Shown in pieces: positions 2,789 through 56,967 of a stretch of 64,000 bases of DNA; positions within the stretch are counted from its first letter, which is position 1; every line of letters starts with the position of its first letter. The notes under the pieces were generated by a model, which did no database searches, was not told where the DNA came from, and saw nothing but the letters and a program-made list of their open reading frames with translations. The position numbers and the translations under genes were made by a program. The DNA is from Planctomycetota bacterium (GTDB taxonomy: Bacteria; Planctomycetota; UBA8108; UBA1146), in contig JADHSM010000001.1 of assembly GCA_016776905.1 (NCBI GenBank), forward strand, positions 45,743 to 109,742, in the 5' to 3' direction.

Positions 2789-3297
2789 GATGAGGAGGCC
2801 CCCTCGGTGTCTATGGACTCTCCCGAGGTTGGAATCATTTTTTGAATGCGGCTCGTCATCGATCCATCGAGGACACCCTTTTCAGCATCGTCCGTCAGCG
2901 CATGGACCAATAGTTGATCCTCCGTCACGTCGATGGTCACGGTACCTGGGGTCAACGTAATGGAGTTGGCGAGGAGAGTTTGGGCGAGGGGGTGTCGGAT
3001 GGAGTGGGGGACCTTGACCAACCTGGGTTGGATCGAGGACCGGAGACTCCATGAATGCCGGGTCACATCGAGACTGGCGAGTACGATTTGGTAAATCAGC
3101 CAGGGAAGATAGAAAAGGAATCGTGGAATCGATTCGACAGGCTGGTAAACCTCACCGATCAGTCCGAGACGATGGCAACAGAACACTGCGAGAGCTGAAG
3201 AGATCACTCCAGAGCCGACGAGGAATGTGGATTCGAATTGGCCCGAAAGGAGCAACCAGAAGCCGATCAGTGATAGAAGCAATAGTAACGAACGCAA
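2785..3297 (-). CDS. mrpE: Mrp/Mnh antiporter subunit E
   Basis: 170 aa. It has N-terminal TM helices followed by a soluble tail, and its stop overlaps the mrpF start (ATGA). Confidence 0.65.
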   Translation of the reverse strand: MRSLLLLLSLIGFWLLLSGQFESTFLVGSGVISSALAVFCCHRLGLIGEVYQPVESIPRFLFYLPWLIYQIVLASLDVTRHSWSLRSSIQPRLVKVPHSIRHPLAQTLLANSITLTPGTVTIDVTEDQLLVHALTDDAEKGVLDGSMTSRIQKMIPTSGESIDTEGASSS

Positions 3298-7247: not shown

Positions 7248-7278
7248 CTCAAAAGACTCCCTTTCAGCAGGCACTGTT

Positions 7279-7334
7279 TCATGGGGGCCTTCATGGGGGC
7301 CCAAGGAGGTTATCTGCGGAGGTTATCTGCGGAG
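7279..7334. repeat. Two adjacent short tandem duplications (12 bp x2: tcatgggggcct; 13 bp x2: ggttatctgcgga) in the intergenic/5' region
   Basis: Read directly from the sequence at 7279-7302 and 7308-7333. Confidence 0.85.
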
Positions 7335-8486
7335 GGCGTCCACAGCGGACCTCGAAGACGCGACCCAGGCAGGGATGGCTCCACCCACAACTCCCAAAAT
7401 GAATGAGAGTCCTAGTGCGGTCAGTGCAATGGTGGGCGAAAGCTGAAAAGAGAAACTGATGTCGGTAAAGGTATTAAAGTTTGCCGCCCCAGTCTCGATC
7501 CCATGGAAGGGTGCAACAAGCCCCAGTCCTACCAATCCTCCGATGAGACCGACTTGAGCCGATTCGAGAAGGAACGAGAGAAAAATTTCTTTACGACTGT
7601 ATCCGATCGCGAGAAGAATCCCGATTTCATGATTTCTGGCAGAGACCGTCGCAAGCATTGTATTCATCGTTCCAATGACCGCTGCAGATCCCATGATGAG
7701 GGTCAAGAAAGCGGACAAGTAGAGTAATGCTGTGCTCAGTCCGGTGGTCTGCTTCGACAGGTATGAACTCTGCGAACTGATCTCAAAGTTAAGTCTGGGG
7801 TCTTCAGTGAGCTCCTCATTGAGTTGTTCGAAGTCAACACCGTCAACCATACGAGCAATCACTCTGCTGTATGCAGGGCGGTCGAGGGCTTCCAGCATTC
7901 GGTCGACGGGACCCCATATCTCGCTCCCTTGTGCACTATCAAACTCATAGACTCCGACGACCTTGAAGGGAGTGGTATTCAGTTTGAGGGTGTCACCGAG
8001 AGAGCAATCTTTCATACGATTGACGAGGGGGCGGCCGACGACGACTTCATCGGCATCCCAATTGGGCCAGCTTCCCTCGAGCAGTCGTGGTGGATCGGGG
8101 TGCAGAGTCAGTGAAGCGGCTTCGATACCCCGGAGAGGAGCATTCACCAGACCCCCTTCGATCTTTTCCATGTATAAGGCGAGGAAACATTCAGCGGCTG
8201 CGAGGGGGCGTCCTTCGCTGTCTCTTTGTATTTCCGCTCGCTCTTTGATGATGATTCGGGCCGATTCTCTGGGAATCCCGGATTCGCCCTCAGAGGTCGA
8301 ACCGGGTCTCAAGTAGATACCGACTTGATCTGCGCCCAGTGGTTTGAAAAGTTGTTCAAAACCGTTTCGCAGGGAAAGGACTCCACACAATACAGCGGTG
8401 GTCAGTCCAATTCCCAAGGCCGTAAAAGCCACCTGAGATCGGCGTCGAACGAGATTGCGAGTGGTGTATCCGGTAGGGAGTGCCAT
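7323..8486 (-). CDS. ABC transporter permease, FtsX/MacB family
   Basis: 387 aa. It has an N-terminal TM helix, a large periplasmic domain and a C-terminal FtsX-like 3-TM bundle. It is the last gene of a four-gene exporter operon. Confidence 0.75.
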   Translation of the reverse strand: MALPTGYTTRNLVRRRSQVAFTALGIGLTTAVLCGVLSLRNGFEQLFKPLGADQVGIYLRPGSTSEGESGIPRESARIIIKERAEIQRDSEGRPLAAAECFLALYMEKIEGGLVNAPLRGIEAASLTLHPDPPRLLEGSWPNWDADEVVVGRPLVNRMKDCSLGDTLKLNTTPFKVVGVYEFDSAQGSEIWGPVDRMLEALDRPAYSRVIARMVDGVDFEQLNEELTEDPRLNFEISSQSSYLSKQTTGLSTALLYLSAFLTLIMGSAAVIGTMNTMLATVSARNHEIGILLAIGYSRKEIFLSFLLESAQVGLIGGLVGLGLVAPFHGIETGAANFNTFTDISFSFQLSPTIALTALGLSFILGVVGGAIPAWVASSRSAVDALRR

Positions 8487-11703: not shown

Positions 11704-12729
11704 TTACCAACCCCGCTTCTCTTTCTCTGAGCGAATCTGCTTGTCGAGTCCGGAAATGGTTCGTTGCTCGGGATTGGGGTTTCCAGGGAAATGAGATTCT
11801 CTTTGAAGCGGGTAGGCCTCACTTCGTAAATGAAGTGGCATGGCATGTCCTTGCCGCCTCTGTCGCTCTTCGCGGATAACTCCGAGGGCGATAGGCCCGA
11901 TCACAGAAGCCTGACCCGGGCCTTCTGCGGCACGTGATAGAACTCGTCCATCCATGTCGACGATCATGCTCGATCCTGGCCACGAGAAGGGAGGGTAGTT
12001 TTCGGCGGAGGCTCCCTGATTGCAGGCGACGACAGCCGCGAGATTTTCGACGGCTCGACTTCTGTTGATCAATGTCCACCAGTCCATGGGTTCTGTTGCT
12101 CCCCACGGATCCATGTAAGCACTGATGCGAATTAAAACTTCTGCGCCACCCAGAGTCAGTTCTCGACAGGTCTCGGGAAAGAGCCAGTCGTAGCATGTGG
12201 CCACGCCCAGTTTTCCGATGTCGGTTTCTGTGACTGGAAACATCGGTTCGTCGTATCCCGGTATATCGTGCGGACTGGTGTGGACTTCCCAGGGAATCCA
12301 TGGGTTGACCTTACGATATCGACTGGCGATCTCGCCTTCGGGAGAGATCAATACCGTTGTGTTGAAGAGCGCATCAGGCCAGCGAGGATCGATCTCCAGA
12401 AAGGATCCGCTCTGGATCCATACACCATGTTTTTTAGCCACTTTCCCTAGGCGTTCTGTGTGCTCATTGGGAACTTCAACGGCCAGTTTTTCTGTCAGTT
12501 CTGCAACGGTTTCATAGATGGGCCCGGCGTGAGCGAACTCTGGGAAAACCACCAAACGGATATCATGGAATGGTTTGTATCCGATCACTGTGTTTTCAAG
12601 TTGTTCTATGAGGCGAGTCGTGACTGCGGACATCTCATCCCGGTGGCGTGGGTGAGGATGGTCTGTTTGGCAGCAAGCGGCGTAATAAATCATCGGTACC
12701 TTATCTCCACTCGTTTGACCTTCGCTCAT
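11704..12729 (-). CDS. Carbon-nitrogen hydrolase, aliphatic amidase/formamidase (AmiE/AmiF) family
   Basis: Blocks VFPEF...RYRKVNPWIPWE...GVATCYDWLFPE...IRISAYM align with formamidase motifs. Confidence 0.7.
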   Translation of the reverse strand: MSEGQTSGDKVPMIYYAACCQTDHPHPRHRDEMSAVTTRLIEQLENTVIGYKPFHDIRLVVFPEFAHAGPIYETVAELTEKLAVEVPNEHTERLGKVAKKHGVWIQSGSFLEIDPRWPDALFNTTVLISPEGEIASRYRKVNPWIPWEVHTSPHDIPGYDEPMFPVTETDIGKLGVATCYDWLFPETCRELTLGGAEVLIRISAYMDPWGATEPMDWWTLINRSRAVENLAAVVACNQGASAENYPPFSWPGSSMIVDMDGRVLSRAAEGPGQASVIGPIALGVIREERQRRQGHAMPLHLRSEAYPLQRESHFPGNPNPEQRTISGLDKQIRSEKEKRGW

Positions 12730-12761
12730 ATTGACCTTCGCTCATTTTGGACTTCGCTCAT
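12714..12761. repeat. 16-bp x3 tandem repeat spanning the amidase start codon
   Basis: The units tttgaccttcgctcat, attgaccttcgctcat and tttggacttcgctcat each carry ATG plus GAGCGAAGG on the minus strand. Confidence 0.85.
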
Positions 12762-27102: not shown

Positions 27103-27157
27103 GAACGAAATTTTTGAACGGTGATTTGAACGGTGATTTGAACGGTAATTTGAACGG
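27103..27157. repeat. 12-bp tandem repeat (gaacggtgattt), about 4.5 copies, in the 5' region of the HEAT/vWA gene
   Basis: Read directly. A second 12-bp x2 duplication (ctcttctttgct) lies in-frame at 27285-27310. Confidence 0.85.
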
Positions 27158-31347: not shown

Positions 31348-31439
31348 AACACCTGTTCTGCAGATTGAAAGTGAAGAGCAGAAAAGCCAAAGCTGGGGGG
31401 GATATATCCCCATTCGATTTTCCGGGAAGAGAGAGCAAA

Positions 31440-32864
31440 ATGTCTGAGAGTACACCGCATTCTAGCGATGAAGATAGTTCAGGCGAAACGAGCTCAGGAC
31501 TCATCCTGAATACGACAAAAGATCAGGGATATAAACCTCCACGACTCTTTAACGAAATCCTTCCTACTGGAGGAGTGATACGCCGGCGCTGGGAAGATTT
31601 CAGAGTGGAAGAGATTCCTCTCTACACTCCATGCGGTTCTGGAGAGCATCTCTACATAACAATAGAGAAGCGAAACAGAACTACACTTCAAGCTCGAAAT
31701 CATCTCGCGAGGGTATTTGAAGTCTCACCGGACGATGTCGGGTTCGCAGGTTTCAAAGATAAACGTGCCATCACTACACAGACTTTTTCTCTCCCTGTTC
31801 TTTCTGATACAAAAGTTAAAGATGTCGAAGAGCATTGGATAGAAGTCAAGGAAGTCCAGAGACACAAAAATAAGATTCGTACGGGGCATCTTGAGGGAAA
31901 TCGATTTGAAATCCTGATCAGGGAAACTCGTGAAGATTGCCTTGAAGATGTCACTAAGATTCTTTCAAAGATTGCTCTGCATGGGCTTCCCAATTTTTAT
32001 GGACCTCAGCGATTTGGCATCCATGGAGATGGCGCAAAAGTAGGTTCTGCTTTGCTCCGGAGAAAAATTGACAAGGCCCTCGATTTGCTATTGGCCCCAA
32101 GTGAAGGCATCGTTGAGGAATACCGGGACGCTTACGCCGCTGGTGATATTCAACAAGCTCTGCAGCTTTTGCCCCCGGGAAGAAACACAGAGTTGGCGAT
32201 GCTGAAATCGCTGCGTTCTCACCCTGATAATATGCGTGCCGCTGCAAGACGGATTCCTAGACCGCTTCGGAAAATGTACTACTCAGCTTATCAGTCAGAA
32301 CTTTTCAACTGGGTTCTTATCGAACGAATGGATCGATCTCCTGATGCATATCATTCGCCATGGGCGGGTGATATTTGCCAGTTAGAGGGAAGAAGATCAA
32401 GGTTTCATGTTGATCTGGATCCCGTGGCCCATCAGATAGAGGTGGAACGCGCAGCAGCGGGGGAGGTGTCTCCCACAGGACCGATATTTGGTCGAAAGAT
32501 GAAACCACCACTCGGGCTCGCAGGTGATGTTGAAATGGCGATTTTGGAAGCAGAAGGATTAAGAGCGGAGTCGTGGCTCTCTCATGTGAGAGGTCTTGAT
32601 CTGGATGGGTCGAGAAGGCCGCTGAGAGTTTCTGTTGGCGATCCTGAAGCCAGTTGGCACAAAGGTGAAGAGGGAGAGGAAGGGTTGATGATCAAGTTCT
32701 CGCTGCCAGCGGGCTCATTTGCCACCACGCTCCTTGATCAGATCATGGGCCCGGAAGTCTCCCGAGTCGAAGTCGACTCGGGAGACTCCCGTGAGTTGGA
32801 GTCGCAAGACTCCCGTGAGTTGGAGTCGCAAGACTCCTGTGAGTTGGAGTCGCAAGACTCCTGA
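31440..32864 (+). CDS. truD: tRNA pseudouridine(13) synthase TruD with a repetitive C-terminal tail
   Basis: AGFKDKRAITTQ holds the catalytic Asp motif. ATG at 31440 follows GGGAAGAGAG. The C-terminus carries (DSRELESQ)x3. Confidence 0.75.
   Translation: MSESTPHSSDEDSSGETSSGLILNTTKDQGYKPPRLFNEILPTGGVIRRRWEDFRVEEIPLYTPCGSGEHLYITIEKRNRTTLQARNHLARVFEVSPDDVGFAGFKDKRAITTQTFSLPVLSDTKVKDVEEHWIEVKEVQRHKNKIRTGHLEGNRFEILIRETREDCLEDVTKILSKIALHGLPNFYGPQRFGIHGDGAKVGSALLRRKIDKALDLLLAPSEGIVEEYRDAYAAGDIQQALQLLPPGRNTELAMLKSLRSHPDNMRAAARRIPRPLRKMYYSAYQSELFNWVLIERMDRSPDAYHSPWAGDICQLEGRRSRFHVDLDPVAHQIEVERAAAGEVSPTGPIFGRKMKPPLGLAGDVEMAILEAEGLRAESWLSHVRGLDLDGSRRPLRVSVGDPEASWHKGEEGEEGLMIKFSLPAGSFATTLLDQIMGPEVSRVEVDSGDSRELESQDSRELESQDSCELESQDS
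32761..32864. repeat. 22-bp perfect palindrome, then a 24-bp x3.4 in-frame tandem repeat at the truD 3' end
   Basis: cccgagtcgaagtcgactcggg, followed by (gactcccgtgagttggagtcgcaa)x3 up to the stop codon. Confidence 0.85.
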
Positions 32865-46578: not shown

Positions 46579-48483
46579 ATGGCGAACAAACTGTTCAGCC
46601 TCTTACTCTTGACCGTTGCGGTGCTTTTGAGCACGCCGTCTAGAGCGATAGCAGATGTAGAGAAATTAGGACAATACACCGTCATTGCGATGTCCGTCGA
46701 TGACTGGCAGGGAATGAAGACTGAAGGCGGAAAGTCTGACTTTGGCCAGTTTATCGCTGAGCCGGGTATTCAGGAAATCGGCAACCGTCTCTTTGACGGA
46801 ATCTCGAAAATGATCAGTAACGAGATGTCGATGGAGGAAGATCAGCAGAAGGGCTTGGACTTTCTTAAGACTCTTGCCATGCGCTGGTATGCAGAAAATA
46901 CAGGTCAATTGGTTGTGGGATTGGGTTACGAGATGGATCCCAATATGGGTTTCCCCATGCCCAGCCTCATTCTTGATTTTAATGGGCCGGCCGATTTGGG
47001 ACCTCAGCACTTGGAGCTTCTGACGTTGATTCGGGAGCAGGTTGGGGAAAAAGTCGGTTTAATCCCGACAGCCTTCAGTATCGGCGAGATGGAATTCAAC
47101 GGTTTGGCAGCAATGCCGGGTTCGGGAGTGTTCATCGGTCAACAGGAGACTCGCCATCTGGTGGGCACGAGTAAGAAGGCGATCGAAAATTATCTTCGTG
47201 AGGGTGACACAGCCGTCGGTGCGAATTTCGGATCTACGAAAATCTTCAAGGCTGCTCAAAATAATCTTCGTCGTGGTGGGTCGTCCTCGTACCTGAATAT
47301 GGACGCCGTGTGGAACCTGACACCGATGCTCGACATGATGACCTCCTCTGGGGACGAAGAAGATGGAATGTCGATCAGTAAGGTGATTTCCTCGCTGGGT
47401 TTCGAGAGTATTTCTGGATTCGCTTCTCGATCATACGTGGAAGATGGTGGAAGCGGTTCCGATTCAATTCTCGCCATGAACGGTCGCCCAGGAATACTGT
47501 CTATTTTACCCAAGGAAAATGGCAATATTTCGATTCCCGGTTTTGTTTCGGCAAAGAGTTCTAGCGTTTCACTTATGCGTTTGAACTTTGACACAATCGT
47601 AGATGACGTCGTTGAGATGGCGGCAACTATGAGTGGTGAATCTCCTGACGAGTTCCGAGCGATGCTCGATATTCAGATGGAAATGATGGCAGCGCAAATG
47701 GGCGTTAATCCCATGGAGTTGTTAGATGCGATGGAGGGCACTATTTGTGTCGCCACTCCTCCTGCCCCGGAAAATAAGTCGATGGCCATGAACCCTATGG
47801 AAATGATGATGGGGCAAGGCGGCAACGGGAACTTCATGATCAAGATGTCGGACCGAAAGGTCTTCGAGAAACTTTTGGGTGTTCTTGCAGGTCCCGAAAT
47901 GATGGGATCCATGATCAAGAAGGATAGTTTCATGGATCTTGATGTCTGGACCTACGATCCATTGGGGGATATGCCTCCTGAGTTCGCTGGACAAGGACCT
48001 GCTTTAGCTCCGTCTTGGACGATGTCGGATGACTGGTTCGTCCTGAGCTTCAGTTCGGATGATCTCAAGGACATGATTCGCACTTCTCAGGGCGAGGGTG
48101 AAAAGTTCTTGGAAGACCGGGAAATTAACAAGGTGATGAAGCAAGTGATGGCCTCTCAAGGAGTGTCATTATCTTTCACAAACCTTGGGGAGAACTTGGC
48201 AGCAGGAGCGGATGTTCTTCGTCCTCTGTTGGGGTTCCTACCGTTGATGTCTCCGGAACTGGGGCAGAATGAAGATTTATTGTTCCTGTTTGATCCTTCC
48301 AACATCCCGGAATCAGAGATTTTCAGAAAGTACTTCGGATGGACTGGTGGAAGAGTTTCCGCCGTCGATGACGGACTCAAGACATACACTTTCTCAGAGC
48401 GTATGACGTCTTCTGATAGTGAAGAAAAAAGCGCTGAAGAAAAAAGTACTGAGGAAAAGAAGAAGGAAGTTCAGAAATTTTAG
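46579..48483 (+). CDS. Secreted Met-rich protein of unknown function
   Basis: Signal peptide MANKLFSLLLLTVAVLLSTPSRA. Met-rich patches include MAMNPMEMMMGQGG, MLDIQMEMMAAQMGVNPM and PEMMGSM. It lies 34 bp after the protease gene. Confidence 0.5.
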   Translation: MANKLFSLLLLTVAVLLSTPSRAIADVEKLGQYTVIAMSVDDWQGMKTEGGKSDFGQFIAEPGIQEIGNRLFDGISKMISNEMSMEEDQQKGLDFLKTLAMRWYAENTGQLVVGLGYEMDPNMGFPMPSLILDFNGPADLGPQHLELLTLIREQVGEKVGLIPTAFSIGEMEFNGLAAMPGSGVFIGQQETRHLVGTSKKAIENYLREGDTAVGANFGSTKIFKAAQNNLRRGGSSSYLNMDAVWNLTPMLDMMTSSGDEEDGMSISKVISSLGFESISGFASRSYVEDGGSGSDSILAMNGRPGILSILPKENGNISIPGFVSAKSSSVSLMRLNFDTIVDDVVEMAATMSGESPDEFRAMLDIQMEMMAAQMGVNPMELLDAMEGTICVATPPAPENKSMAMNPMEMMMGQGGNGNFMIKMSDRKVFEKLLGVLAGPEMMGSMIKKDSFMDLDVWTYDPLGDMPPEFAGQGPALAPSWTMSDDWFVLSFSSDDLKDMIRTSQGEGEKFLEDREINKVMKQVMASQGVSLSFTNLGENLAAGADVLRPLLGFLPLMSPELGQNEDLLFLFDPSNIPESEIFRKYFGWTGGRVSAVDDGLKTYTFSERMTSSDSEEKSAEEKSTEEKKKEVQKF

Positions 48484-49476: not shown

Positions 49477-51135
49477 GTGCGACTTGCTATTGCCCAGATC
49501 AATACGACTGTTGGAGATCTCGAAGGGAATTACACCCTGATTCTAGAGGCTGTTCGTCGTGCCTCTGATCTGGGAGCCGATACGGTTCTCTTTCCGGAGT
49601 TAGCAACATGTGGCTATCCGCCTCAGGATTTGGTCACACGCCCTGATTTTGTTTCTTCAGTTGAAAAAATGAATCAACGCATTGCTGAGGATCTGGAATC
49701 GGGGCCGGCTTTGATTTTGGGAAGTTTGAGAACCTCTCCCGAAGGAAGTTCTAGAGATGTTTACAACAGTGCTCTGATTTTGGATCAGGGGCGACTTCAG
49801 GGATTCCACGATAAAATCCTCTTACCTACATACGATGTCTTCGATGAGGCGCGAACCTTTGAGCCGGGCGGAGAGGCCAGCGTGCATTCCATCCGTGGCA
49901 AAAAAGTGGGAATCGCAATATGTGAGGATCTCTGGACAACAACTCTGAGTGGGCAACCCACCTATTCACGAGATCCAGGACAGGAACTGGTCGAACAAGG
50001 AGCCGAGATCTTACTCAGCCCTTCGGCGAGCCCTTTTCATGCAGGTCGGAAAAAGATCAGGGAGCAAGTCTTTGCTGCCCAGTCCAAACGTTGGGGAGTG
50101 CCCATCTGCTTGGCCAATCTCGTCGGAGGAAATACCGAACTGATTTTTGATGGGGGTAGTTTCTTGATGGATCCCGATGGTTCGATCGAGCGCTGTCCTT
50201 CATTCAGTTCTCATGTCGCACTTGTCGGGGGAGTTGCCAAAAGTGGATTAGATGCTGCCTTAGAAGATACGGATGAAGAATCTTTGCAGGAGATTGCGGA
50301 TGCATTAATTCTGGGGATTTCCGACTTCTTTCAAAAGTGTCATCACGAAACTGCTGTTTTAGGCCTGTCCGGAGGAATCGATTCCGCAGTGGCGGCCTTG
50401 TTGGCAGTGGAGGCATTGGGCTCTGAACATGTTCGGGGAGTGGGAATGCCTGGCCCTTATTCGTCGATAGGAAGTCAGGAAGATGCTGTCGATCTCGCCC
50501 AAAGATTGGGGATCGACTTTCAGATGATCTCGATTCAGGAGTCCTACACTCAGATGAGATCGAGTTTGGAACCGGTATTGGGGACTGGAAATTGGGGCGT
50601 GGCTCAAGAGAACCTACAATCACGCATCCGGGGGACCACTCTGATGACTTTGGCAAACTCGATGCCTGGGGCCATGGTTTTGGCGACGGGGAACAAATCT
50701 GAGCTTTCGGTGGGATACTGCACTCTATACGGTGACATGTGCGGCGGATTGGCCCCTCTGGGGGATCTCTCCAAGCAACAGGTCTATGGGATTGCGAGAC
50801 TGGAGAAATTCAGGGGCCGCATCCCCGATTCGACCCTCGATAAACCCCCTTCTGCGGAACTCGCCCCGGATCAAGTCGATACGGATAGTCTGCCTCCTTA
50901 TGAACAATTGGACGCCATTCTCTCCGGATGGGTTGAGCAAAGGCTTTCATTTCAAGAGATTGTCGATCTCGGAATCCCTGAAGAATCGGTCAGAAGCGTC
51001 ATCCGGCTGATCGAAATCAGTGAACACAAGAGACGGCAATCTGCTCCCATCTTGAGGGTTTCACCTAGGGCATACGGCGTCGGCAGAAGGGTTCCTATCG
51101 CACGATCACTGGATGGCTGGCAACTTCCGTCTTGA
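49477..51135 (+). CDS. nadE: Glutamine-dependent NAD+ synthetase (CN-hydrolase domain plus NAD synthetase PP-loop domain)
   Basis: N-terminal nitrilase-like domain with catalytic Cys in IAICED. PP-loop GLSGGIDSAV. Confidence 0.9.
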   Translation: MRLAIAQINTTVGDLEGNYTLILEAVRRASDLGADTVLFPELATCGYPPQDLVTRPDFVSSVEKMNQRIAEDLESGPALILGSLRTSPEGSSRDVYNSALILDQGRLQGFHDKILLPTYDVFDEARTFEPGGEASVHSIRGKKVGIAICEDLWTTTLSGQPTYSRDPGQELVEQGAEILLSPSASPFHAGRKKIREQVFAAQSKRWGVPICLANLVGGNTELIFDGGSFLMDPDGSIERCPSFSSHVALVGGVAKSGLDAALEDTDEESLQEIADALILGISDFFQKCHHETAVLGLSGGIDSAVAALLAVEALGSEHVRGVGMPGPYSSIGSQEDAVDLAQRLGIDFQMISIQESYTQMRSSLEPVLGTGNWGVAQENLQSRIRGTTLMTLANSMPGAMVLATGNKSELSVGYCTLYGDMCGGLAPLGDLSKQQVYGIARLEKFRGRIPDSTLDKPPSAELAPDQVDTDSLPPYEQLDAILSGWVEQRLSFQEIVDLGIPEESVRSVIRLIEISEHKRRQSAPILRVSPRAYGVGRRVPIARSLDGWQLPS

Positions 51136-51368
51136 GATTCATTGAGAATCCGCTCAGCGATCATCTCTGATCAAGAAGTCGCCTCTGAATGCCGGAACCT
51201 CTTGCCCCGAGCAGGATTACAGATGATTATTAAGTTTGGACCTTCGAGGCCCTGTGGAGTGAGTTCTCCCCAGAGCCCCGTGGGCCCTCTCGATAAATCA
51301 AAAAACAGGGTTGAGCCTCACGTTATTCCGGATCTGAAAAAGATCTGAGGCGAGGGGTGATATGCCAG

Positions 51369-51464
51369 CGTGAGTACTGCTTTTCAAGTACACGTGAGTA
51401 CTGCTTTTCAAGTACACGTGAGTACTGCTTTTCAAGTACACGTGAGTACTGCTTTTCAAGTACA
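51369..51464. repeat. Four perfect tandem copies of a 24-bp unit (cgtgagtactgcttttcaagtaca) about 65 bp upstream of gltA
   Basis: Read directly. Each unit carries AGTACT and, across unit junctions, CACGTG. Confidence 0.9.
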
Positions 51465-51528
51465 TCAGTGGTGCGCGGCAACAAACGGGCTTCCAAGGAA
51501 GTCTAAACACGGGACGGACATGTAGAGG

Positions 51529-52818
51529 ATGAATGAGAAGATGACCACGGAGAATGCCATTCTTCATCTGGGGGACCAACAGGTCTCGCTTCCGGTGTAC
51601 ACAGGCACCGAGGGTGAAAAGGCGATCGATATCCGGAATCTTCGTAAGGAGAGCGGATTTGTGACTCTCGATCCTGGTTATGTGAATACCGGGAGTACCG
51701 AGAGTTCGATCTGTTTCATCGATGGCGAAAAAGGTATTCTTCGATACCGCGGTTACCCCATCGAGCAATTGGCTCAGAAATCAAATTTCGTAGAGACCAG
51801 TTACTTGCTCATTCATGGCGACCTTCCCAATCCTGAACAGTACGAATCGTTTCGAACAAATCTTCGTTTTCATTCGATGATCCACGAAGACATGCGCCAC
51901 TTTTACGAAGGATTCCCTTCTTCAGCGCATCCCATGGCGATCCTTTCGGCGATGGTGATGGGGCTTTCGACTTTTTACACAGATATCGAAGATCCTGAAA
52001 ATGACGATAATCTTGATTTGACGGTTTGCCGTTTGCTTTCAAAAGTTAGAACGCTTGCAGCATTTTCATTCAAGAAGTCCATTGGGCAGCCCTTCATCTA
52101 CCCCGACAACTCGCTCACGTACTGCGGAAACTTTATGCACATGATGTTTAGAGTTCCTGCAGAGCCGTACCACGTAGATCCAGAGGTGGAGAGAGCTCTC
52201 AATCTGCTCCTCATATTGCATGCGGATCATGAGCAGAATTGCTCCACTTCAACGGTTCGAATGGTGGGATCTTCTCTCACCAATCTCTACGCTTGTATCT
52301 CGGCAGGGATCAGTGCTCTCTGGGGATCCCGGCACGGAGGTGCCAATCAGGCGGTACTCGAGCAACTATCGATGATCCATGAAAATGGGGGAGACGTAGC
52401 GAAGTTCATGGAGCAGGTGAAGGACAAGGATTCCCCAACCCGTTTGATGGGATTTGGTCACCGCGTCTACAAAAACTATGATCCCAGAGCAAAGATCATC
52501 AAAGAAGCCTGCGATCGCCTGTTGGATCACCTTGGTGTTGAAGATCCATTGTTGGAAGTGGCCCGAAAGCTTGAGGATATTGCTCTCAGTGATTCCTACT
52601 TCGTGGAGCGCAACCTTTACCCGAACGTCGATTTCTATTCGGGAATCATGTATCGGGCTATTGGTATTCCAACCAACATGTTTACAGTGATGTTTGCATT
52701 GGGTCGTTTACCAGGGTGGATAGCACATTGGCTTGAGCAGCGAGCAAATCCTGCTGATCGCATTCAGCGTCCCCGCCAAATTTACACGGGTGAACAAATG
52801 AGAGCGTACCCGGAATAA
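51529..52818 (+). CDS. gltA: Citrate synthase (type II)
   Basis: GYRGYPIEQLA...LILHADHEQNCSTSTVR...GFGHRVYKNYDPRA. Confidence 0.9.
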   Translation: MNEKMTTENAILHLGDQQVSLPVYTGTEGEKAIDIRNLRKESGFVTLDPGYVNTGSTESSICFIDGEKGILRYRGYPIEQLAQKSNFVETSYLLIHGDLPNPEQYESFRTNLRFHSMIHEDMRHFYEGFPSSAHPMAILSAMVMGLSTFYTDIEDPENDDNLDLTVCRLLSKVRTLAAFSFKKSIGQPFIYPDNSLTYCGNFMHMMFRVPAEPYHVDPEVERALNLLLILHADHEQNCSTSTVRMVGSSLTNLYACISAGISALWGSRHGGANQAVLEQLSMIHENGGDVAKFMEQVKDKDSPTRLMGFGHRVYKNYDPRAKIIKEACDRLLDHLGVEDPLLEVARKLEDIALSDSYFVERNLYPNVDFYSGIMYRAIGIPTNMFTVMFALGRLPGWIAHWLEQRANPADRIQRPRQIYTGEQMRAYPE

Positions 52819-55452: not shown

Positions 55453-56967
55453 ATGTCGAACTTGAAAACGGAAATACTACCTGAGCGTGGGGTTCGTTGG
55501 ATTCCCGTGATTCTCGGGCCATTACTCACTCTTCTCACTTATTACCTCGCACCTGCAGAGTATTCCTCCACAGTCAGAGGAACCTTGATGGTTACTGTTT
55601 GGACAGTGACATGGTGGGTGACTGAGGCGATTCCGATCCCGGCAAGCTCTCTGCTCCCAGCGGTACTACTCCCTCTCTTCGGAGTTTGCGATGCGGCCAC
55701 AGCGGCAAAATACTACTCTCATCATCTCATTTTGTTACTTCTCGGGGGATTTATGTTGGCGAGAGCTGTGGAGTGCTCAGGGCTCCACCGCAGAATTGCT
55801 ATTCGTACACTGATATTGCTAGGTTCTTCTCCGAGAAGATTAGCTCTGGGATTCTTGGTGACCTCAGCGATGTTGTCGATGTGGATTTCGAATACTGCGA
55901 CCACATTAATGCTGTTGCCGATTGCCATTTCGGTAGCACGACGCACCGAAGAAAAGAGTTCTCTAGACGGTAGATTTACACTGTGCCTGTTACTTTGTAC
56001 TGCATATGGAGCAAATGTCGGCGGTATCGGAACTCTTATTGGGACTCCGCCCAATTTGATTTTCGTCAAGAACGCGCAAGATCTTATTCCTCCTGTTGAA
56101 GTGGGATTCCTTCAATGGCTGACATTGGGATTGCCTGTCGTCGTTCTCTTTTTGCCGGTGATGTACATCCTTATGACCCGATTCTTGGTGCCTCTCCCAG
56201 CAGGAGAATCTCATGGCGGAGAGGGAATGCTCAGAAAAGAATTGGCGGATTTGGGGCCGATGCGTTCTGAGGAGATCCGGGTATTTATCGTCTTTCTTGT
56301 GACCGCTTTATTGTGGATCACTCGTGGAGGTGGAGAAGTCCCAGGTTGGATTGACATCGTCGGGCCATGGCTTGGCTTAGATCCTGCACTTGCAGGGAAG
56401 TATCTTAACGATTCCATCGTCGCTGTCGCTGCGGGTATCGCCTTATTCGTTGTTCCCTCGAAACCGGGCGGAGCAGCGTTACTGGATTGGGAAAAAGCGA
56501 AAGATGTTCCTTGGGGAATGTTACTTCTCTTTGGTGGTGGATTCGCCATCGGAGGTGCTTTTCAAAGCAGTGGTCTTTCCGAAGAAGTCGGAGCATTGAT
56601 GGCGGGTTGGAACACTCTTCCTTTTCCCGTTCTGGTGATGGCGATTTCTTCAGTCACTACTTTTCTGACGGAAGTCACTTCGAATACAGCCTCGATGCAC
56701 TTATTGATGCCAGTGCTTTCTTCGGCAGCTATTCAAGGCGGTATTTCTCCGATACAGATGATGTTGCCAGCAGTACTTTCAGTTTCTTGTGCCTTCATGC
56801 TTCCTGTGGCCACAGCGCCGAATGCCATCGTTTTTGCGACAGGTAAAATTCCCATACGAACGATGATTCGTTGCGGGATCGTCTTGAATATCGTGGGAGT
56901 GATCATTGTGTTGGTTGTGAGTGTTTTACTCGGTCAATTAGGTTGGTTACCTCAAGCGACTGGCTAG
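55453..56967 (+). CDS. DASS-family (SLC13-like) anion:Na+ symporter
   Basis: 504 aa with about 12-14 TM segments in the internally repeated topology typical of DASS/ArsB-NhaD superfamily permeases. Confidence 0.75.
   Translation: MSNLKTEILPERGVRWIPVILGPLLTLLTYYLAPAEYSSTVRGTLMVTVWTVTWWVTEAIPIPASSLLPAVLLPLFGVCDAATAAKYYSHHLILLLLGGFMLARAVECSGLHRRIAIRTLILLGSSPRRLALGFLVTSAMLSMWISNTATTLMLLPIAISVARRTEEKSSLDGRFTLCLLLCTAYGANVGGIGTLIGTPPNLIFVKNAQDLIPPVEVGFLQWLTLGLPVVVLFLPVMYILMTRFLVPLPAGESHGGEGMLRKELADLGPMRSEEIRVFIVFLVTALLWITRGGGEVPGWIDIVGPWLGLDPALAGKYLNDSIVAVAAGIALFVVPSKPGGAALLDWEKAKDVPWGMLLLFGGGFAIGGAFQSSGLSEEVGALMAGWNTLPFPVLVMAISSVTTFLTEVTSNTASMHLLMPVLSSAAIQGGISPIQMMLPAVLSVSCAFMLPVATAPNAIVFATGKIPIRTMIRCGIVLNIVGVIIVLVVSVLLGQLGWLPQATG

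Follow-up and report, generated by a model that had tools for sequence, protein, structure and literature searches.

In Mycobacterium tuberculosis, the MIRU-VNTR loci are intergenic head-to-tail repeats with near-identical copies whose number varies between strains; the MIRUs form a dispersed family, with units of 46–101 bp at dozens of loci. Simple-sequence contingency loci of Neisseria, Haemophilus and Campylobacter are built from many copies of 1–7-nt units and switch at very high rates. Plasmid iterons, usually with a 22-bp period, lie at replication origins beside a rep gene. In the colibactin island of E. coli, the copy number of an 8-bp repeat (ACAGATAC) in the clbR-clbB spacer changes promoter activity; further effects, on the stability of the transcript and on its translation, were proposed in the same study (PMC10924459).

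Here, we analysed a perfect 24-bp tandem repeat upstream of the citrate synthase gene (gltA) in a 64,000-nt stretch of a Planctomycetota contig (hereafter, the window). An initial annotation of this DNA had placed the repeats in the gltA promoter region and likened them to an iterated transcription-factor operator or UP-element array. Our analysis favours another reading: the array is probably a young, species-specific minisatellite, most likely situated in the citrate synthase leader, whose effect on expression would probably be small or neutral.

Results

Tandem Repeats Finder reported the array as (CGTGAGTACTGCTTTTCAAGTACA)x4 with a period of 24, 4.0 copies and 100% matches (score 192), the highest-scoring tandem repeat of the window (Table 1). 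A pattern search with the 24-mer returned exactly four zero-mismatch copies; allowing up to three mismatches added none in the window, and 0 of 100 shuffles gave a match. The four perfect repeats of the initial annotation were thus recovered, as an assembly-level count, and the gap to the gltA ATG, given there as about 65 bp, measures 64 nt (51465–51528). Each unit carries one AGTACT and the three internal junctions form CACGTG, both as previously read from the sequence. In addition, each unit contains the inverted repeat GTACT-N8-AGTAC, and the junctions create a second N8-spaced palindrome, AGTA-N8-TACT. The G+C content of the unit is 42%. As in other minisatellites, units in the range of about 10–100 bp follow one another head to tail in non-coding DNA, here the 393-nt spacer between nadE and the citrate synthase gene, which also holds the promoter-like element and the hairpin described below.

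Table 1. Features at the citrate synthase locus, in window coordinates.
Feature	Positions	Strand	Basis or remark
NAD+ synthase gene nadE, upstream neighbour	49477–51135	+	
Promoter-like element TTGCCC-N17-GATTAT	51202–51230	+	Conservation, role inferred; TTGCCC at 51202–51207, 17-nt spacer, GATTAT at 51225–51230
Interrupted hairpin, presumed 5' end of the citrate synthase leader	51238–51287	+	Covariation
Fast-evolving remainder of the presumed leader, with the array within it	51288–51528	+	
Minisatellite	51369–51464	+	Units 51369–51392, 51393–51416, 51417–51440 and 51441–51464
Citrate synthase gene, 429 aa	51529–52818	+	Pfam PF00285, E 1e-137

Scanning GTDB genomes for the citrate synthase gave no match nearer than 67% identity, and the species, an uncultured marine planctomycete, therefore has no reference genome. 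About 2.6 kb from the citrate synthase gene lies a gene for a transporter of the CitMHS / sodium:sulfate symporter family (55453–56967), possibly a di- or tricarboxylate carrier, whose position is kept in most relatives examined.

The window contains other short tandem repeats. A second 24-bp array (AGACTCCCGTGAGTTGGAGTCGCA, 3.3 copies, 98%) lies at 32783–32861. It is in frame with a TruD pseudouridine synthase gene (31365–32864), at whose 3' end it encodes DSRELESQ repeats immediately before the stop codon. Besides its period of 24 bp, this array shares a heptamer, CGTGAGT, with the one at gltA; since about eight such heptamers are expected in 64 kb, this is probably a coincidence. Four further repeats with 12–16-bp units and 2–4 copies were found at 48420–48458, 27113–27157, 12715–12761 and 7278–7335; one of these occupies the spacer that precedes fabI.

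Does the copy number vary between strains? Searches for proteins identical to the citrate synthase and the NAD+ synthase retrieved about 20 further contigs of the same species, 99.5–100% identical to the window outside the array. All units were perfect in all of these contigs and only their number differed. Two copies were present in 14 contigs (L001-3, L009, L010, L109-111 and L113-117, with the duplicate scaffold pair L116/L111 counted separately), three copies in three contigs (L004, L008 and L112) and four copies in the window and one other contig (L108), while three independent metagenome contigs (L005, L006 and L007) were broken 28–31 nt inside the array. The four-copy L108 is a 312-kb contig with 236x coverage and a single mismatch to the window over 4.6 kb; the three-copy L112, from an NCBI MAG, has 0 mismatches over the same length. 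Copy-number difference among close strains, another mark of a minisatellite, is therefore seen at this locus (2, 3 or 4 copies, counted in short-read assemblies).

Copy number also followed the local SNP haplotype. The three- and four-copy contigs share one haplotype and are all identical to the window across 1274 bp around the array. Within the same 1274 bp, 13 of the 14 two-copy contigs differ from the window, L110 being the exception, and they do so on several backgrounds: (i) 52107C>T with 52617T>G; (ii) 51354G>A; and (iii) 51526A>C. At 52107 and 52617, the broken contigs L005–L007 have the alleles of the window. Strain comparison, which had been proposed as a check on the array, thus yields a variable number of 2–4 copies that tracks SNP haplotypes.

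Are these counts real? Short-read assemblies can collapse tandem repeats, and the species could in principle carry one, possibly larger, number everywhere that de Bruijn assembly has reduced to two or three. Such an artefact would fit the three contigs that break 28–31 nt into the array and the finding that L112 has three copies and not four despite its identity to the window; by our reasoning, the shortest path through a 24-bp cycle would also yield 2–3 copies at k of about 30–55. Nevertheless, we judge it very unlikely that artefacts account for the copy differences. The two-copy arrays occur in MEGAHIT contigs, whose names give a final k of 127 or 141, and in SPAdes contigs as well. From the way these assemblers work, final k-mers of this size should span a 48-bp array together with both flanks, so that reads joining flank, two units and flank must exist. 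Copy number also tracks the SNP haplotype, and the sister lineage (see below) has a single copy with substitutions of its own in two independent assemblies. Arrays of 72–96 bp, on the other hand, exceed small k and should break or be miscounted, which would fit both the broken contigs and the disagreement between three and four. We conclude that a two-copy allele and an allele of at least three copies both exist; the exact number of three or four is less certain, and the difference between three and four copies on one haplotype may be an assembly artefact.

Where does the array come from? In a sister lineage with 95–97% identity, two independent contigs each hold a single diverged copy at the same position and with the same flanks: an NCBI MAG with 96.7% nucleotide identity (L106) has one unit, CGTGTGTACTGCTTTTCGAGTACA, and a JGI contig with about 95% identity (L107) has one unit, CGTGTGTACTGCTTTTTGAGTACA, a variant with TTTTTGAG. 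The single copy of the sister lineage forms a better inverted repeat of 6 bp, TGTACT-N8-AGTACA. The gene order fabI-nadE-gltA-moaE-moaD is conserved in more distant relatives (citrate synthase identity 92, 84, 81, 76 and 74%), whose spacers contain neither a tandem repeat nor a recognisable 24-mer. When JGI metagenomes were scanned with the unit core GAGTACTGCTTTTCAAGTACA, no match was found; with the right flank, the sole match was the single-copy contig L107. A single copy in the sister lineage and no 24-mer in the relatives point to a pre-existing sequence that expanded recently and in this species only, in agreement with the recent expansion previously suggested from the identity of the units (one copy in the sister lineage versus 2–4 in the species). 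As judged from these sequences, the simplest history would lead from one copy to two, now in most haplotypes of the species, and then to three or four in one sub-lineage. No microhomology with 24-bp spacing that might have given rise to the first duplication was found flanking the array. The sister lineage has a direct repeat, TCAGCG, which was considered as duplication microhomology and rejected: its spacing is 28 bp, not 24, and it is out of register.

To place the array relative to transcription signals, we aligned the spacers of eight lineages and searched for conserved blocks. The part of the spacer that bears the array (51288–51528) can hardly be aligned even to the 92% relative, and the only block conserved in the clade is a promoter-like pair immediately followed by a hairpin (51202–51287). 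The pattern TTGNNN-N17-GAT(G/T)AT is kept down to 74% citrate synthase identity, with TTGNNN-N17-GATGAT present in L092, L099, L102 and L104. A simple sigma-70 scan of 51000–51700 reported no promoter or terminator, including none in the 64 nt that separate the array from the ATG; the conserved pair agrees with the sigma-70 consensus at 8 of 12 positions, just under the threshold of the scan. We found no usable planctomycete promoter consensus in the literature.

The hairpin comprises 17 pairs, six of them with compensatory changes (RNAalifold, on only six sequences). In the aligned register 91% of cells were paired, versus 40–53% in slid registers, and none of 500 shuffles reached its covariation score. 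A covariance model built on it matched this clade only, with no match in 50 more distant loci. The hairpin has invariant GACC...CCCCG.GG bases and is without an Rfam match; in relatives, the block lies at 2935–3026 of L091, 2795–2895 of L092, 2829–2953 of L099 and 2788–2894 of L102. The 51202–51287 block could be an undescribed citrate synthase leader element of this marine Planctomycetota clade.

The array starts 139 nt downstream of the promoter-like element. Because the only clade-conserved promoter-like element is upstream of it, the array falls in the presumed 5' leader and not in the promoter region to which the initial annotation had assigned it. On these alignments, the array is most likely transcribed leader rather than promoter DNA; a transcription start downstream of the array or inside it is possible. 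If 51202–51230 is the promoter, the array would occupy about +130 to +230 of a leader of about 290 nt. In relatives, the distance from the -10 hexamer to the ATG is 143–234 nt, and E. coli gltA leaders are reportedly also long, about 200–300 nt.

Two ORFs, both short and not conserved, cross the array (51357–51506 and 51370–51525). The second has 51 codons and runs from a GTG start in the first unit through all four units in the gltA frame. A citrate synthase with an N-terminal extension through the array was considered; it was rejected, as the frame is closed by a TAG at 51523–51525, 3 nt before the gltA ATG. Over-long citrate synthases of 458–547 aa do occur in the 90% cluster (members P0124–P0134, and the call at 3001–4449 of L091, the nearest relative). 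They contain no repeats and are gene-calling over-extensions, which arise because the relative has no in-frame stop upstream of the true ATG.

Might the array act in the RNA? In such a scheme, each unit would contribute a weak hairpin (GUACU-N8-AGUAC), a U4 tract and an in-frame GUG, and the copy number would alter mRNA stability, the binding of an RNA chaperone or other protein, or the translation of an upstream ORF, and hence the citrate synthase level. The position of the array downstream of the promoter-like element and hairpin is consistent with this, as are the two ORFs that traverse it and the effect of the comparable clbR-upstream repeat of E. coli on promoter activity (PMC10924459). 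The folding results are not: shuffled sequence folds as well as the array (-24.4 kcal/mol, z = -0.47) and as the whole leader (z = -0.60), which led us to reject a stable RNA structure formed by the array. The ORF at 51357–51506 differs from the sister lineage by four non-synonymous and two synonymous changes, as expected without selection, and nothing similar to the array is present in relatives. Rfam gave no match in the window at gathering scores, and a permissive search of 51100–51560 returned only chance-level miRNA matches (E > 0.3), placing the array region in no Rfam family. A module of this kind, with the parts listed, is therefore an unlikely account of the array.

Alternatively, the units could be DNA sites. 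A dimeric transcription factor bound to the N8-spaced palindromes would repress or activate more strongly as copies are added, in keeping with the imperfect palindrome of the unit, the second palindrome formed at the junctions and the TGTACT-N8-AGTACA of the single sister copy. Several observations speak against such an iterated operator: (i) an operator array should have a conserved orthologous motif, and the motif is missing from the orthologous spacers of the 74–92% relatives, in which the gene order is the same; (ii) GTACT-N8-AGTAC and AGTA-N8-TACT are otherwise absent from the window, and a search of its 64 kb for GTACT-N8-AGTAC or AGTAC-N6-GTACT gave only one chance-level match with one mismatch; (iii) a 24-bp period corresponds to 2.3 helical turns, so that successive sites do not lie on one face of the helix; and (iv) the array is well downstream of the sole conserved promoter-like element, with no promoter-like site between it and the ATG. 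We consider a DNA operator improbable, slightly more so than a role in the RNA. UP elements are rich in A+T and adjoin the -35 hexamer on its upstream side, at about -40 to -60; this does not describe the array, as its unit has the G+C content given above, no promoter-like site precedes the ATG and the conserved element is upstream of the repeats. Thus, neither the operator nor the UP-element reading of the initial annotation was supported by conservation, by recurrence within the 64 kb or by position relative to a promoter. GTAC, AGTACT and CACGTG were also considered as avoided or enriched restriction or methylation sites and rejected, their observed/expected ratios (0.82, 1.1 and 0.9) being unremarkable.

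Two other kinds of repeat locus were compared. Contingency loci undergo very frequent recurrent copy changes; at gltA, two copies are found on several SNP backgrounds, and the persistence of exactly two copies on several haplotypes argues for a modest rate of change. Iteron arrays come with an adjacent rep gene and origin features, and the neighbours here are fabI, nadE, gltA, moaE and moaD.

Discussion

How could a minisatellite of this kind have formed? We propose that duplication of a 24-bp sequence, present once in the fast-evolving part of the nadE-citrate synthase spacer, came first, and that the identical copies then increased to three or four in one sub-lineage, through slipped-strand mispairing or unequal recombination between them. 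The array would be transcribed within a long citrate synthase 5' leader, which would grow by 24 nt with each copy, from about 216 nt with one copy to 240 nt with two and 288 nt with four. In the sequences compared, the 24-bp unit bears no sign of a conserved protein- or RNA-recognition site, and citrate synthase in this clade is more likely to be regulated through the promoter-like element and the leader hairpin than through the array.

Neutrality of the copy number is assumed in this proposal. Against it, the unit is palindromic, and comparable arrays influence expression in other bacteria. The array might even work as a natural rheostat that sets how strongly the entry step of the TCA cycle is expressed, with the output of citrate synthase shifting at each added 24-nt unit or palindromic site. 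We consider this unlikely. If it were true, repeat number would create heritable differences in central-carbon flux among the co-existing strains of a free-living marine planctomycete, and the logic of contingency loci would extend from the surface genes of pathogens to core metabolism in the open ocean.

On present evidence, the minisatellite is mainly useful as a strain marker. It also calls for caution in assembly, since contigs of the species break or miscount there. Should copy number change citrate synthase expression, wild marine Planctomycetota could be genotyped at this array as a simple way to mark their metabolic micro-diversity.

How does the locus compare with described repeats? 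Like iterons and operator arrays, the gltA array consists of internally symmetric direct repeats of about 20 bp; unlike iterons, it has no adjacent rep gene and occupies a conserved chromosomal spacer that contains no repeat in relatives. As at contingency loci, a change of repeat number in a 5' region would be a heritable and reversible source of expression differences, but the two-copy gltA array is common to several SNP haplotypes, which points to a slow rate. With the clbR repeat, it has in common a position upstream of a start codon, near or within the promoter or leader, and a number that varies between strains (PMC10924459); its unit is three times longer, and only 1–4 copies have been seen. 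Compared with the MIRU-VNTR loci, the gltA array is confined to one locus, has a 24-bp unit and occurs nowhere else in the window or the JGI metagenome scan. Like them, it lies head to tail between genes, with near-identical copies whose number differs among close strains. It belongs to an ordinary class of intergenic variable-number tandem repeats in bacteria, shows no evidence of conserved regulatory function and shares its general organisation with the MIRU-VNTR loci.
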